Assembly: GCA_000004985.1 (NCBI GenBank)
Contig: GG738869.1
Reading direction: 5' to 3' (one strand)
Origin: Naegleria gruberi
Lineage: Eukaryota
DNA: 64,000 nt
The translations under genes were made by a program, and so were the position numbers. Below are positions 11,092 through 17,950 of the stretch, in pieces. Below the pieces are notes generated by a model. That model was not told the origin of the DNA, did no database searches, and saw only the letters and a list, made by a program, of their open reading frames with translations. How positions within the stretch are numbered: position 1 is the first letter of the stretch; every line of letters begins with the position of its first letter.

Positions 11092-11544
11092 ATTTCACAT
11101 GCAACACGTTCAATGAAAGATGTGAAATTGTTCAACACAAAATAAATTTTTAATTTCCACCTCAAACCATAATTAATAATCTGCAATTCTAGAACATTGC
11201 GAGCTTGATATTGACAAGCAAGTATCCCTTCCAGAATAAATCAGTGATGCCTTAGCATTCTCATAAGCAAACAATGTCTTTCGCCTTTTACTAAAGACAT
11301 CCGTGTGAGTGTGTAATCATGGGCTTCACGAATTTTTCTGCCACTTTCTCGAGTGGACAATCTTAATAGAAAACAAGCATTACTATTATATTCAACATTA
11401 GAATGAGAATTTTGATTATGTTCCTTCATCGCAACTCCTCTAAATAATGTATTGTAAAGTAATATTATCGGATTTCCCTTCGAAAAACCATTTTGGGAAG
11501 ATTTAAATGACCTATCACAAGAAGAATCCAAGCTCTTTTTAAAA

Positions 11545-12285
11545 ATGTCTCAACACCACCAATGCAACACCTACACTGAAGCTCTTGATCAGATTCATCT
11601 GCAATCCCTCGAATATTATCAAGAAGTTGTCGATCAACAAGGAGGTTGGGAGAATTACAAAGTCACACCAGAACAAGCTCGATACTACATCAATAAGAAG
11701 AAGCATACTTATCATATTTGGATGGGTGAGATGAAGAATGTTCATTTGGGAGAATCTGTTGTGAAGGATTTGAGAGATTTCATCAAGTATTTGGATCATG
11801 AGGAGGTGAGATTATTGTGGGATGAAGAATTGGTCAAGAGTCAAACTATTCACGAAACAATTGCAAAAAATTGTAAAGAAAGTTGTAAGCATGATGATTT
11901 GAAAGTTTTTTATAGAGAGTTTAGTTCTGGAAGTAAGGCCATTTCGAATCGTGAATTTGTAGTTTCTAGAAATATTTATCAAGATCCCAAATTGGAAAAT
12001 GTGATGTGGTTGTGTACTCATACACCAATGGACTTTCCAGATTATGAACACAAGAATGCACCAAAGAATTCATCATGTGTAAGAGGAAAGGTCATGCTGA
12101 CTTCATGGAGATTTGAAAAGTTACCATCCACTATTGAAGGAAAATCATGTTTTAACATTTCTATAATGACACATTCAGAACCTGGAGGTTGGGTAACTGC
12201 TTCTTTGTTTAATAATAGTGCAGGTGATAGACCAGCAGCAACAGTTTCGAGATTGGTTAAATATTTACAAACAACCAAACAATAA
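11545..12285 (+). CDS. START / Bet v1-like lipid-binding domain protein (tentative)
   Basis: 246-aa ORF. Its C-terminal half (FYREFSSGSKAISNREFVVSRNIY...WLCTHTPMDFP...GWVTASLFNNSAG) resembles StAR-related lipid-transfer domains. Confidence 0.4.
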   Translation: MSQHHQCNTYTEALDQIHLQSLEYYQEVVDQQGGWENYKVTPEQARYYINKKKHTYHIWMGEMKNVHLGESVVKDLRDFIKYLDHEEVRLLWDEELVKSQTIHETIAKNCKESCKHDDLKVFYREFSSGSKAISNREFVVSRNIYQDPKLENVMWLCTHTPMDFPDYEHKNAPKNSSCVRGKVMLTSWRFEKLPSTIEGKSCFNISIMTHSEPGGWVTASLFNNSAGDRPAATVSRLVKYLQTTKQ

Positions 12286-12342
12286 ATAGCTAAAATATGT
12301 TTATTAAGGCGAAGTAAGGAATGATAAATTCATTTGGTGTAA

Positions 12343-12400
12343 TCGGGCGTGGTATAGTGGTAGCATTCCAGACTGTCACTCTGGCGACCCGGGTTCAATT
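12343..12400 (+). pseudogene. truncated tRNA-Asp(GTC) gene. The 5' 58 nt are present (acceptor 5' strand, D-arm, anticodon arm, variable loop, T-stem 5' half and T-loop) and end abruptly.
   Basis: The sequence is TCGGGCGTGGTATAGTGGTAGCATTCCAGACTGTCACTCTGGCGACCCGGGTTCAATT. Anticodon stem CCAGA/TCTGG, loop CTGTCAC with GTC anticodon, close to canonical eukaryotic tRNA-Asp. After TTCAATT the expected CCCGG plus 3' acceptor strand is replaced by unrelated AT-rich sequence. Confidence 0.6.
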
Positions 12401-12999
12401 TTATGTAGTTTTAGGTTTTGGAAATTTTAAATGAAAATTTATGTTCCAGCCTTTGTGGTCAATAAATACTAATCGTATTTAATTATGAATTAAGAGTTGC
12501 TCCAGAGGATCATGAAATGTTATATCATGATTAAATCCAATGGAAATGTTTGAATTCTTCATTCATAGAAGATGAAAAATGTGTTTAGGTGGTATTGTTG
12601 TTCTATTAATTAATAAAAATTGAAATTTAAGGTACCAATCTGCATGTTCACAAATCCCCCATTCACAAACCATGGCTGGAAAGGAATGCAGCAATCATCT
12701 ATGAACGAGGAAACCTACAGCGAAGCATGTTTCCAGTTCGATATCATGCTCAAGATATGTGACTACAGAGTCTTCATCTTGGTTAACCTCAAAGGTCAGA
12801 TTGACTCAAAAAAGTCGAGTTTATGTATTCCTACAGAAAAGATCCTGTAGAAGTACAGTCAATGGTTTTATCAATCTTGCATCCTCAATGATGTTATATC
12901 GGTTGTGAAAGTGAGAAATGTTGTGAGGAAAAGTTATGGTTAAAAAATTGAGAAAAATTAGAAGACATATTCAAGAAAATATTTGAATGAGTTGGAGAA

Positions 13000-13112
13000 A
13001 CACAAGGTCGTTTTTTAGTTGAGAATTTACAAATTTTGGTTGTTTAATTTGTAAATTGGAGAATTACTCTGTTGGAAGAAAATGATAAATAACTAAAAAC
13101 GACCTTGTGTGA
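13000..13112. repeat. 21-bp near-perfect inverted repeat (AACACAAGGTCGTTTTTTAGTT / AACTAAAAACGACCTTGTGTG) flanking a spacer of about 70 bp, forming a hairpin
   Basis: Read directly from the sequence. The arms at 13000-13020 and 13091-13112 are reverse complements with one T-length difference. Confidence 0.6.
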
Positions 13113-13161
13113 TTATTGATCTATTCCCATATGAAAATCAAGTTTGTTTCCCAAACATGAA

Positions 13162-13242
13162 GCAGGGGTTCCCGAGTGGTCAAAGGGGGTAGACTCAAGT
13201 TCTACTGCGCAAGCTTCGTGGGTTCAAATCCCACCTTCTGCA
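13162..13242 (+). tRNA. tRNA-Leu(CAA), type II with a long variable arm
   Basis: GCAGGGGTTCCCGAGTGGTCAAAGGGGGTAGACTCAAGTTCTACTGCGCAAGCTTCGTGGGTTCAAATCCCACCTTCTGCA. Anticodon stem GTAGA/TCTAC, loop CTCAAGT, T-arm GTGGG-TTCAAAT-CCCAC, acceptor pairing GCAGGGG/CTTCTGC. Closely resembles eukaryotic tRNA-Leu-CAA. Confidence 0.85.
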
Positions 13243-13596
13243 GCTTTTGCTTCTTTCTCCCTCAATATTTTTGGTAATACCACCAGTTTCCTATTTTTAT
13301 TGTGCGTATGACGTCTAGTTTCTATGGTAAAAGTTTGATTCAATTCCGTCAAGGCTCTATGAAGATAATCAATAAAGATAACACTGACCTCAAATATTCC
13401 AGTAAAAATACCTTTAAAAATTTCAAACAAACCAAAGATTGAGAAACAGCCGCTCATAGTTATTCTCTGAATGAAATGCCTTCTAGGAGCTACAGATCCA
13501 TATTGTTACAGCGGAATAAGGTTTTTGTGAATGACAACATGGAGAACATTTTGGAAATGAAAAGTTTAAAATATTAATTTGCTTTTCAAGTTCTAT

Positions 13597-14430
13597 TTAT
13601 TTCCACAGATTTTTCAATGGAAAATTAAATTCTTTCGATTTTTCTATAAGTGAATGGATGATTGACTTGTCAATTGAATCATTTTTGATGAGAACTTGGA
13701 GTGGATCTACCCTTTCAAATAAGGATATAAAATACAACAAATAAATTCCATTTTCTATTGATAGTAACTTATCTGAATATAATTTGATGAAAGAGTCCAT
13801 AATTGGATAGGATCTGTTCAATGTGTATACAAGTTGTGTTTTTTTGAACAATTGGAAATAATCTGGTAAGACTTTACACAATCTTTCCAATAGTGGGATT
13901 GTAAAATTGTTGGAAAGCAATAATTGGTCAAAATATCTTGGGACAGCAATCAATAAACACACTATAGTTCTGTGGTTTGTTTGAATTTTGTAAGCACCAA
14001 TCCATTTTAAATGATTTTCAAAGTAGGTCATATAAATTGACAGTTCCTTCTCCCGACATGCAAGTTCTGTATTCAATTCAAACCACCATGCACTCATCAA
14101 TATTTTGATTCTGTGATAGTGAAACTTTTTCATTAGTACTTCTTTTTCATTTTGATTTTTTGGGATAGTCTGAGATAGAATAATCAATTGTTGGCAATTT
14201 TCTTTTGGAAGTGGTATTTTGTTCCTTCTCACTCTTGACAATAAAACAAATTTAGGATTATTTGATTCGGAGATCATTGATGTGAAGGCATTCAGTAAAT
14301 CATTGGTAGTGATTAATTGACAAAATTGAGGTTCATTCTTCAAAAGTGTATACAGTTCGGAAAAAGGCAAGAATTTCAATATTAAAGATAGTATTTCCGT
14401 GGGTAAGCTAGTTACATAATAAATACACAT
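13597..14430 (-). CDS. F-box-like domain protein (hypothetical)
   Basis: 277-aa ORF starting at ATG. The N-terminus VTSLPTEILSLILKFLPFSELYTLL matches the F-box consensus LP.EIL..IL..L. The rest is Leu-rich. Confidence 0.5.
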   Translation of the reverse strand: MCIYYVTSLPTEILSLILKFLPFSELYTLLKNEPQFCQLITTNDLLNAFTSMISESNNPKFVLLSRVRRNKIPLPKENCQQLIILSQTIPKNQNEKEVLMKKFHYHRIKILMSAWWFELNTELACREKELSIYMTYFENHLKWIGAYKIQTNHRTIVCLLIAVPRYFDQLLLSNNFTIPLLERLCKVLPDYFQLFKKTQLVYTLNRSYPIMDSFIKLYSDKLLSIENGIYLLYFISLFERVDPLQVLIKNDSIDKSIIHSLIEKSKEFNFPLKNLWK

Positions 14431-14502: not shown

Positions 14503-14513
14503 AAAAATTAAAA
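14503..14513 (-). terminator. RNA polymerase III T-run terminator just 3' of the 5S gene
   Basis: The minus strand reads ...GGTGCTGTAGTC followed by TTTTAATTTTT. Confidence 0.5.
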
Positions 14514-14631
14514 GACTACAGCACCACAGGTTCCCAAGTTGTCTCCAACCTCAGTACTGATGTGGCTCGACGATGCTTAACTTCTCAAATCGGACGGGAT
14601 GAGGTGCATTCATCGTGATATGGCCGTAGCC
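14514..14631 (-). rRNA. 5S ribosomal RNA gene, about 118 nt
   Basis: The minus strand reads GGCTACGGCCATATCACGATGAATGCACCTCATCCCGTCCGATTTGAGAAGTTAAGCATCGTCGAGCCACATCAGTACTGAGGTTGGAGACAACTTGGGAACCTGTGGTGCTGTAGTC. Helix I pairs GGCUACGGC with GCUGUAGUC. Conserved 5S blocks CGGCCATA, TCCCGTCCGAT, AGTTAAGC, AGTACT and TGGGAA..GGTGCTGTAG are present. No ORF crosses it. Confidence 0.85.
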
Positions 14632-14883: not shown

Positions 14884-15471
14884 ATGCCAGCCTACAAGAA
14901 AGCACAACAATACGATTCCGACGACTCTGAAGAACAACAAGAAGAACAAGAAGTCATTGAAGAAGCTGAAGAAGAAATTCAAGACGTTAACGATGCTTCT
15001 GAAGATGAAAATGCTGATTCTGATGATGATATGCCAAAGAATAAGCCATTGAAGAAGCACGGTTTCAATGGTGGTAACCGTGGAGGTTTTGGTGGTGATA
15101 GAGAAGGTGGCCGTGGTGGCTTCAGAGGTGGAAGAGGTGGCCGTGGTGGTCGTGGAGGATTCAACAGAGATGGTCCACGTGGTATTGAAAAGCAAGATAA
15201 GATGGGAGGTGGTTTCAGAGGTGGCCGTGGTGGTTTTGGTGGCGATAGAGGTGGCCGTGGTGGTCGTGGTGGCTTCAGAGGAGGTCGTGGTGGTAGTTTT
15301 GGTGGTGATAGAGATGGAGGAAGAGGTGGTTTCAGAGGAGGTAGAGGTGGTGGCCGTGGTGGTGGCAGAGGTGGTTTTGGTGGTGATAGAGGTGGCCGTG
15401 GTGGTGGTCGTGGAGGATTCAGAGGAGGTAGAGGTGGTCGTGGTGGTAGAGGTGGTTTCAACAGAGATTAA
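14884..15471 (+). CDS. glycine/arginine-rich (RGG/GAR) protein with an acidic Ser/Asp/Glu-rich N-terminus, nucleolar-type
   Basis: 195-aa ORF. The N-terminal 60 aa are D/E/S-rich, followed by repeats of GGRGGFRGGRGGRGG. Overlapping alternate-frame ORFs are artefacts of the GGN repeats. Confidence 0.6.
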   Translation: MPAYKKAQQYDSDDSEEQQEEQEVIEEAEEEIQDVNDASEDENADSDDDMPKNKPLKKHGFNGGNRGGFGGDREGGRGGFRGGRGGRGGRGGFNRDGPRGIEKQDKMGGGFRGGRGGFGGDRGGRGGRGGFRGGRGGSFGGDRDGGRGGFRGGRGGGRGGGRGGFGGDRGGRGGGRGGFRGGRGGRGGRGGFNRD

Positions 15472-16111
15472 TTTCTTTATTCACCCTAGAACCATTTCAA
15501 AAGAACCTATAGTTGTAGTGCTATCATTCCTGTTATCTTTGTGGAGTGAATTAATACTGCTGCAATGGTTCTTTTCTCTATTGTTACCAAGATTTTTGGT
15601 GACATTTTCTCTCAACACTTGTTTATACACTTTAGGTCCAACTCAAATTCCCTCAACAAACTTGAAAGTCTGAGATGAGCCTGTCTCAGCTAAATTGAAA
15701 CAGGTCTATTTAATAACTAGGTCTGATTGGTCTTACTTGTTTGCTTGACCCATGCTAAATATTCATTTATTATAATATTATCAAGTTTGTTCATTATTTT
15801 AAAAAGCCACACACAGTTCGTATGTATGAGGGAAGCTATGAATTGATTCAAATATCAATCTAGCACAAAATCGCAAGTCAGATATCATGGCTGACAACAA
15901 GCAAACAGACCAATGTTATGTTTCAACGAGTTGGATGAATGTGGTGTGAATAGTTGGGAAATATGTCCAATGTTTGAATAGGCAATAATGTGGAATATTT
16001 GGAAGTTGGCAAGATAGCAACTTGAATTGTTCGGAAAGTTTGTTGTGGAATTACTCGAGGAAATATTCACAAATTAGGATTTTGTTAGGAATTTATTAGG
16101 AGGATAATTGG

Positions 16112-17950
16112 TCAACAGAATTCTGGATGTCTGACATAGTCCATTGGTTCGGCTCCACAACGTTCATTCATTTTGGCATAAGGTTTAATTGTGGAAAAGT
16201 TGTCCAATTTCCAATACCAAGGTCCAGCTACTTGACAGTAAGGTAGATTATCATTGTTGACATTACACTTTTCAGGTCTCCAATTCAAATCCCATATTCC
16301 CAATTGGTATATATCCTTTGGGGTAAACTCACCACTTTCTAATTGGTTAGTCAAATTTCCAAATATTCCAGCAGCCTTTAACAAATTCATATACATTACT
16401 GAACATACCATCATTGGCTTGCCGTCATAAAGCCATCCATCTTTTTCAGGTAATGTAAGAGCATAATTGATTGTAATGTTCAATTTGTTCAAATAATCGA
16501 ATACACACATAACTTCCGTACAATTAGCATTAATTCCATAATAATGTTTGAGTCTTTGATTCATTCCTTTAAGGAAGAGCAAATTAATTGCAGAACCAGC
16601 ATACCAATTGTTAAATAGAACAAAAGTGGCACCAATCATATCTCCAGAGAGTGGGTGTGGATAATTATCTTCTTCAGTATCTATCCATGCATAGGCAATA
16701 TTTACAAAACCATATTCATTTCCTTCCAAAGTTTTAAACAACTCTACAGCTGCAGATTCATTATAGAGTTTTCTATATTCTGGAGCTAATCTTGCAATAA
16801 TAATGGTAGAATCAACTTGAGAAGCAGTGTACCATGCTGGCCATGGAGTTCTTCTGACTCCTTCCTCAGTCGACTCGACAACGTATTTAACACCATCAAT
16901 CTTTAAAATAGACGCAATATGTCCAGTTCTGGCTCCAGTTCCGTACATTAATAAACAATCCAATCCACTCAATTGAAGTTGCATGACAACATCACCACTT
17001 TCTAGCTCATAATCTTCCAAGTAAATTTGTTTGATAGGTCTTTCATTGAATTCAAAACCCATATCTTCTTTCAAGAAACTCATCTTATCCTTCTCAAAAT
17101 ACATGCCAGCAAGTAATTTTCCAGCATTGAAAGCATCAATAATGGTTTGGAAAATGGCATCTTTGAAATAAAACATTCTCAACCCATTTTGTAAAACGTC
17201 TTCCCATTCTCCGTCATCTTTCAAGTGTTCCAAAATCAGTTCATGTTTTCCGTGTGTGAATAGAACCTTGACAAAGTAATTTTCTCTTGTTGTAATAAAA
17301 TACCAATCATAACAGAGGTAAGATACTGGTCCACTTGTCTCAAATTCCAAAGTGACGGATTTCTTTGCAGAATCAATTTTGGTAATTCTGGCAGATGTGT
17401 TTTGGAAACAAGGAGCATAGGACCAACTAATTGGCTTGCCATCAATTTTAGCATTTCCAATAAATGATGGAACCCAATTTCTTCTATGATCTGGAGGCAT
17501 TGGATCTGAGCTACTTTTTCCAAATTGTGTCTTGATTGACTTGTTATTTTCTTTTGACAATTGCCACAATGCCTTCCAACTCATTCTCTTCATAGTTCTA
17601 GCAATTGATCTCGTTCTCACAAAATCACCCTTCCTTTCCACAAGCATGGTCTCCGTCTTGTGATAGAGTGATTCACTCTCAGTATAATATCCATTACTTG
17701 GTGATGCATAAATATTTCCTCTCTCGTGATGTTCTTTATGATGATGAATATTATTGTTACTATTCAATAATTGTTGGGTAAACTTATTAAAAGTTTCCTT
17801 GTTAGAAGTTACATAGGTGAGTGAAGCCTCTTCATGATGATGATCAAACATCGGAATGGTTAATTTTGCATTTACAATTACAATTGATAGAATCAATAGT
17901 ACAATATTTATCCAATTATAAATAATAAAATTCTTCCCCCGCAACATCAT
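16112..17950 (-). CDS. type II membrane or secreted protein with a His-rich region (hypothetical)
   Basis: 612-aa ORF. N-terminal hydrophobic segment NWINIVLLILSIVIVNA, then His-rich stretches and a large Cys-containing luminal domain. No confident domain match. Confidence 0.45.
   Translation of the reverse strand: MMLRGKNFIIYNWINIVLLILSIVIVNAKLTIPMFDHHHEEASLTYVTSNKETFNKFTQQLLNSNNNIHHHKEHHERGNIYASPSNGYYTESESLYHKTETMLVERKGDFVRTRSIARTMKRMSWKALWQLSKENNKSIKTQFGKSSSDPMPPDHRRNWVPSFIGNAKIDGKPISWSYAPCFQNTSARITKIDSAKKSVTLEFETSGPVSYLCYDWYFITTRENYFVKVLFTHGKHELILEHLKDDGEWEDVLQNGLRMFYFKDAIFQTIIDAFNAGKLLAGMYFEKDKMSFLKEDMGFEFNERPIKQIYLEDYELESGDVVMQLQLSGLDCLLMYGTGARTGHIASILKIDGVKYVVESTEEGVRRTPWPAWYTASQVDSTIIIARLAPEYRKLYNESAAVELFKTLEGNEYGFVNIAYAWIDTEEDNYPHPLSGDMIGATFVLFNNWYAGSAINLLFLKGMNQRLKHYYGINANCTEVMCVFDYLNKLNITINYALTLPEKDGWLYDGKPMMVCSVMYMNLLKAAGIFGNLTNQLESGEFTPKDIYQLGIWDLNWRPEKCNVNNDNLPYCQVAGPWYWKLDNFSTIKPYAKMNERCGAEPMDYVRHPEFC

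Follow-up and report, generated by a model that had tools for sequence, protein, structure and literature searches.

We find that a 58-nt segment of Naegleria gruberi DNA, lying in a 64-kb stretch that was analysed as a whole and is referred to here as the window, is probably a non-functional remnant of a nuclear tRNA-Asp(GTC) gene. Judging from its sequence and from that of its intact relatives, this relic most likely arose by a short deletion, of about 13-17 bp, in a once-intact gene. The evidence for this comes from its close similarity to complete tRNA-Asp genes, from the sharp point at which that similarity ends, and from the T-rich sequence that begins there.

Identity and extent of the relic

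The plus-strand sequence of 12343-12400, TCGGGCGTGGTATAGTGGTAGCATTCCAGACTGTCACTCTGGCGACCCGGGTTCAATT, retains the 5' strand of the acceptor stem, the D arm, the anticodon arm with its GTC anticodon at 12375-12377, a 4-nt variable loop, the 5' strand of the T stem and the T loop (Table 1). Absent are the 3' strands of the T stem and of the acceptor stem, about the 14 last bases, and without them the relic can neither form a cloverleaf nor be aminoacylated; the full cloverleaf with acceptor and T stems that defines a functional tRNA is therefore missing. When the sequence was ended at 12400, Infernal with the Rfam tRNA model returned a 3'-truncated match over model positions 1-58 of 71 (30.6 bits, E=5.3e-5), in the alignment of which all but one of the D-arm and anticodon-arm pairs are standard. 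ARAGORN, run over the whole window, did not call the relic and found a single tRNA, the tRNA-Leu(CAA) listed in Table 1. Nor was the relic reported by cmscan over 11800-13600, where it lay inside a longer sequence, because Infernal permits truncated matches only at sequence ends. As the relic shows, clean 3' truncations of this kind escape standard tRNA finders.

Table 1. Features of the relic and of its neighbourhood, in window coordinates
Feature	Position	Strand	Description
U5 snRNA	11247-11357	+	Rfam RF00020, 66.6 bits (gathering score 40)
START-domain protein gene	11545-12285	+	100% identical to NCBI N. gruberi predicted protein; PF01852
tRNA-Asp(GTC) relic	12343-12400	+	58 nt, canonical positions 1-60
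A box TGGTATAGTGG	12350-12360	+	Intact; tRNA positions 8-19
B-box remnant GGTTCAATTTT	12392-12402	+	9/11 against GGTTCGANTCC
TTTT cluster, four runs	12399-12402, 12409-12412, 12416-12419, 12425-12428	+	Begins at the break
U3 snoRNA	12634-12862	-	Rfam RF00012, 75.5 bits (gathering score 34); full length, 1-219
Hairpin, 111 bp	13000-13110		16-nt perfect terminal inverted repeat ACACAAGGTCGTTTTT
tRNA-Leu(CAA), intact	13162-13242	+	ARAGORN; Rfam tRNA, 48.7 bits
5S rRNA	14513-14631	-	Rfam RF00001, 105.4 bits

A metagenome scan with the anticodon arm as query gave seven contigs, five of them with intact tRNA-Asp(GTC) genes of 71-72 nt. Four of these intact environmental genes match the relic at 93-95% identity over 60-63 nt and the fifth (contig L012) at about 90% over 58 nt, from which we conclude that the relic is of tRNA-Asp origin and that the resemblance is not due to chance. 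In these alignments the similarity stops at 12400 (12398 for L012). Together with the covariance-model match in truncated mode, these comparisons bear out the preliminary description, made from the letters of the sequence, which had called the segment a tRNA-Asp(GTC) gene truncated inside the T loop. Asp features present in the relic include G10-U25, GTC and C38. Its D-stem mismatch A12-C23 is common to four of the five intact relatives and is thus a trait of the tRNA family and no sign of decay. In fact no obvious decay is seen across the 58 kept bases, which fits a recent event and fits equally well selection that keeps the A and B boxes.

Among environmental sequences we also noted a tRNA-Asp copy (L009 1075-1116, minus strand) from which 10 nt of the T loop are gone, its sequence reading …GACCCGG directly joined to CGGTGCTCGAGA. 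Either this copy is a second pseudogene with a small deletion or, its coverage being as low as 0.93, the gap is an assembly error; with that reservation its sequence suggests that small internal deletions may occur in the tRNA-Asp family.

The break and its 3' flank

At the break the window reads TTATGTAGTTTTAGG, where the intact genes read CCCGGTGCTCGAGA (CCCGG and the acceptor strand). The breakpoint is uncertain by 2 bases, T59 and T60 being assignable to either side. The preliminary description had seen unrelated AT-rich DNA beyond this point; instead, the first 25 nt from the break hold three TTTT runs and are terminator-like. At least three TTTT runs per 25 nt are found in 0.11-0.17% of all 25-nt segments of this sequence, and in 22 of the 826 segments (2.7%) that themselves start with TTTT. 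In intact tRNA-Asp relatives and in the nearby tRNA-Leu, one or two T runs fall in the first 30 nt or so downstream, starting 0-5 nt past the gene. By this comparison the TTTT cluster looks like the native Pol III terminator of the former gene, an argument that is statistical and of modest strength, considering that the genome is AT-rich (overall GC of the window about 34%) and that two of the first four T's may be tRNA-derived.

A deletion of the kind proposed would have taken out CCCGG, CGCCCGA and the discriminator, possibly mediated by the T/TT microhomology at the junction, and would have joined the T loop straight to the gene's own oligo-T Pol III terminator. When the 14 nt CCCGGTGCTCGAGA are taken from the intact gene of L010 the result is GGTTCGATTTTTGCTT, and its architecture equals that of GGTTCAATTTTATG in the window. 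The preliminary description had offered an insertion or deletion breakpoint, with retroelements as possible agents. The breakpoint stands, and a deletion is its best reading, but the retroelement part does not, as no LTR, transposon ORF or credible target-site duplication was found beside the break in the 64-kb window. A check for direct and inverted repeats around the relic gave short AT-rich matches only, at chance level, one of which, TTCAATTTT, is found at the end of the relic and in the 3' flank of U3. The sole flanking 9-mer repeat, CAATAAATA, begins 55 nt upstream of the relic and overlaps the stop codon of the START gene.

Genes surrounding the relic

U5, the relic, U3, tRNA-Leu and 5S all lie within 3.4 kb. 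Three of these, U5, U3 (between the relic and tRNA-Leu) and 5S, had gone unnoticed in the earlier reading of this DNA, which had correctly placed an intact tRNA-Leu downstream, 761 bp from the relic by our ARAGORN and Rfam coordinates, and before it a hairpin repeat that proves to be real. The stop codon of the START gene is 57 bp upstream of the relic and is overlapped by an AATAAA. U3 is convergent with the relic, with 233 bp from the U3 3' end to the end of the relic, and tRNA-Leu is divergent from U3, 299 bp from its 5' end. In such a small-RNA cluster an intact tRNA-Asp gene would have been an unsurprising former member.

The hairpin lies between the U3 5' end and tRNA-Leu, has an inner 12-nt palindromic stem and is single-copy in the window; its fold z-score is -5.8 on the plus strand and -8.2 on the minus strand, and it may represent an inserted MITE-like element or encode a hairpin RNA. 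A T5 run is present about 15 nt past the U3 3' end and, as a sequence feature, would fit Pol III transcription of U3. U5 is convergent with U3 at a distance of 1276 bp, the START gene and the relic being in between. The 5' flanks of U3 (12869-12880, minus strand) and of U5 (about 11198-11209, plus strand) share a 12-mer that is identical at 10 of 12 positions, GCAAGATTGATA and GCGAGCTTGATA, at differing distances from the predicted starts, and this could be a promoter motif or chance. The 5S gene is followed by TTTAATTTTT. Between tRNA-Leu and 5S is a 277-aa ORF (13597-14430, minus strand) for which the protein collection contains no identical sequence and just one match, a distant N. gruberi paralogue (41% identical), and which may be unannotated or differently modelled.

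The missing 3' half and synteny

The expected 3' part, CCCGGCGCCCGA, is found nowhere in the 64-kb window at up to two mismatches, and a pairing-based scan for the 3' half that allowed G-U pairs on both strands of the 64 kb gave background noise only. The 12 kb upstream of the relic and the 51 kb downstream contain no 3' half on either strand. On the right-hand side of the cluster, 14884-17950 is syntenic with N. lovaniensis L007 10001-13693, a segment with the gene for a 612-aa protein and that for a glycine/arginine-rich protein, and this synteny ends exactly where the RNA gene cluster starts. On the other side, the START orthologues of N. fowleri and N. lovaniensis sit in a different, RNA-free neighbourhood. 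In fact no tRNA or Rfam RNA was found within 10 kb of the START-gene and 612-aa-gene loci of N. fowleri, N. lovaniensis and Willaertia, and none of the loci examined in these three carries an orthologous small-RNA cluster. A START paralogue on a 3-kb ENA contig (L001) likewise has no tRNA there.

With respect to N. lovaniensis, N. fowleri and Willaertia, synteny thus breaks off to either side of the RNA cluster, which indicates that the region was rearranged during Naegleria evolution. This, along with the sharpness of the break, is what might be expected if a larger rearrangement or an insertion had split the tRNA-Asp gene and joined the DNA from 12401, possibly bearing U3, to the T loop, with the 3' half now elsewhere in the genome or lost. 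We nevertheless consider such an origin unlikely, since the 3' half is missing from the surveyed surroundings of the relic, since the break has no target-site duplication, LTR or transposon ORF, and since the terminator-like flank would go unexplained, a random junction showing one only about 3% of the time.

Remaining promoter elements

A short deletion, as favoured here, would have left most of the internal promoter in place. The relic has its A box, and its B-box remnant keeps the GGTTCRA motif (reading GGTTCAA), with C61 and C62 now T and T; the spacing between A and B boxes is normal. A regular-expression search for A and B boxes together over the 64 kb found the relic and tRNA-Leu only. 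With an A box, most of a B box and TTTT directly after, the relic might still bind TFIIIC and Pol III. A transcript would be about 60-85 nt long, would be without an acceptor stem and would probably be unstable, and the predicted fold of a 60-nt product is no stabler than those of shuffled sequences (z = -1.06).

These elements invite comparison with the tRNA-like sequences of trypanosomatids (e.g. that of Leishmania major U2), which are oriented divergently to the snRNA gene, have box A about 104 bp before its start and give rise to short unstable transcripts (PMC4950102). Similar to these, the relic is a tRNA-derived non-tRNA with A and B boxes in a small-RNA cluster (PMC4950102), the GGTTC core being intact and the B box agreeing at 9 of 11 positions. 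On this model, or on that of the yeast extra-TFIIIC sites, it could have been retained for its A and B boxes as a tRNA-like Pol III/TFIIIC element that aids U3 expression or bounds the START gene from the RNA genes. The intact A box and GGTTCRA at normal spacing, the terminator directly after them and the undecayed state of all 58 nt agree with such a role, as does a cluster layout like that of Euglenozoa, in which U3 depends on tRNA A and B boxes (PMC2784804; PMC4950102). However, the relic does not share the trypanosomatid geometry, being neither divergent from an snRNA gene nor placed with its box A about 104 bp ahead of an snRNA start: instead the relic and U3 are convergent, with 233 bp between the U3 3' end and the relic. 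Rfam models detect no RNA gene at the corresponding minus-strand position, some 104 bp before the relic, where the START coding region and an 18-bit noise match are all that is seen. Moreover, U5 has no tRNA-like element upstream of it, and the B box has lost C61 and C62. We therefore regard a maintained element as very unlikely. The narrower proposal that the relic is the heterolobosean counterpart of the trypanosomatid tRNA-like control elements, and would recruit TFIIIC and Pol III beside U3, is drawn by analogy and has, in our estimate, a slimmer chance again; if true, tRNA-assisted expression and the clustering of small-RNA genes (U3, U5, 5S) would date to the common ancestor of Discoba.

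Further copies and other gene structures

No second copy of the relic or of its flank 12401-12633 is present in the 64-kb window, and U3, the spacer and tRNA-Leu likewise have no other copies within it. The relic junction is in none of the seven metagenome matches to the anticodon arm, none of which adjoins U3, and is absent from the viral-contig collection; a probe with the 5' half as it reads in N. gruberi found nothing in the prokaryote-genome collection. After the relic there is no A-rich or simple-repeat tail. The literature on Naegleria U3, SINEs and tRNA pseudogenes yielded nothing specific to this locus.

The preliminary description had also raised the head of a tRNA-derived SINE, and more generally the relic might belong to some multi-copy tRNA-fragment repeat. 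Like a tRNA-derived SINE it starts with a tRNA-like part that carries an internal Pol III promoter, A and B boxes included, and continues into sequence that is not tRNA, and the high tDNA count of N. gruberi would favour such an origin. Unlike a SINE, it has no copy in the sequences described above, and neither the 3' tail nor a convincing flanking target-site duplication is seen. The TTTT that ends the head puts a terminator inside the would-be element, where it would halt Pol III before any body, and the U3 gene is only 233 bp away. On these grounds we consider a SINE or similar repeat to be highly improbable.

Least probable of all is that the relic is an assembly artefact, as the preliminary description had allowed, or that it belongs to a tRNA gene that is split, permuted or interrupted by an intron, with its 3' half from elsewhere, for which only the sharp break speaks: the junction has no N's and no repeats of the kind prone to mis-assembly, a permuted gene is rejected with nothing upstream of 12343 that resembles a 3' half, an intron-containing one with no 3' half downstream within the window, and the split-tRNA partner considered in the earlier reading was sought as a complete 3' half without any CCCGG+CGCCCGA-like sequence appearing on either strand of the 64 kb, and we know of no split tRNAs in this lineage.

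Comparison with known systems

A remnant left by a short deletion finds its closest parallel in tRNA pseudogenes (Bermudez-Santana et al. 2010, PMC2888827), which the relic resembles in being tRNA-derived, in lacking a cloverleaf and in belonging to a tDNA-rich genome with fast turnover; its descent from one specific tRNA, tRNA-Asp(GTC), can moreover be demonstrated. Most catalogued tRNA pseudogenes, however, keep their full length, differ by point changes and are picked up by tRNAscan-SE, whereas the relic is a clean 3' truncation. Considering that 924 tRNA genes and pseudogenes have been reported for the N. gruberi genome, and that eukaryotic tRNA loci turn over rapidly (PMC2888827), relics are to be expected. 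The relic is nothing out of the ordinary, a dead tRNA gene of the sort that tRNA-gene turnover leaves behind in a tRNA-rich genome, and it carries little weight alone. Its only notable aspect, and a mildly notable one, is its Euglenozoa-like setting of U3, U5, tRNA and 5S.

Naegleria belongs to Discoba, the same supergroup as Euglenozoa. In trypanosomatids a divergent tRNA gene lies 93-105 bp upstream of U3, its A and B boxes serving as promoter elements, and in Leishmania and Euglena a downstream convergent tRNA-Arg is also found, at 209 bp in Euglena (PMC2784804). Euglena gracilis U3 in addition has a downstream convergent U5 gene, and in L. tarentolae 5S is in the same cluster as U3 (PMC2784804). 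The N. gruberi locus differs from these in having a truncated tRNA-Asp downstream in place of the tRNA-Arg, in that the upstream tRNA-Leu is at 299 bp as against 93-105 bp, in that a protein gene stands between U3 and U5, and in that the host is a heterolobosean. Similar to Euglenozoa (PMC2784804), however, N. gruberi U3 has a divergent tRNA upstream, a tRNA relic and U5 convergent with it downstream, and 5S nearby, and the distance from U3 to the downstream tRNA is comparable in kind, 209 bp in Euglena and 233 bp for the relic. Were other Naegleria loci to show this arrangement too, it would inform both the age of tRNA-linked small-RNA gene organisation in Discoba and the question whether Pol III transcribes Naegleria U3. 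We thus have in a heterolobosean U5, U3, a tRNA, a tRNA relic and 5S in 3.4 kb, in relative orientations as in Euglena and Leishmania.
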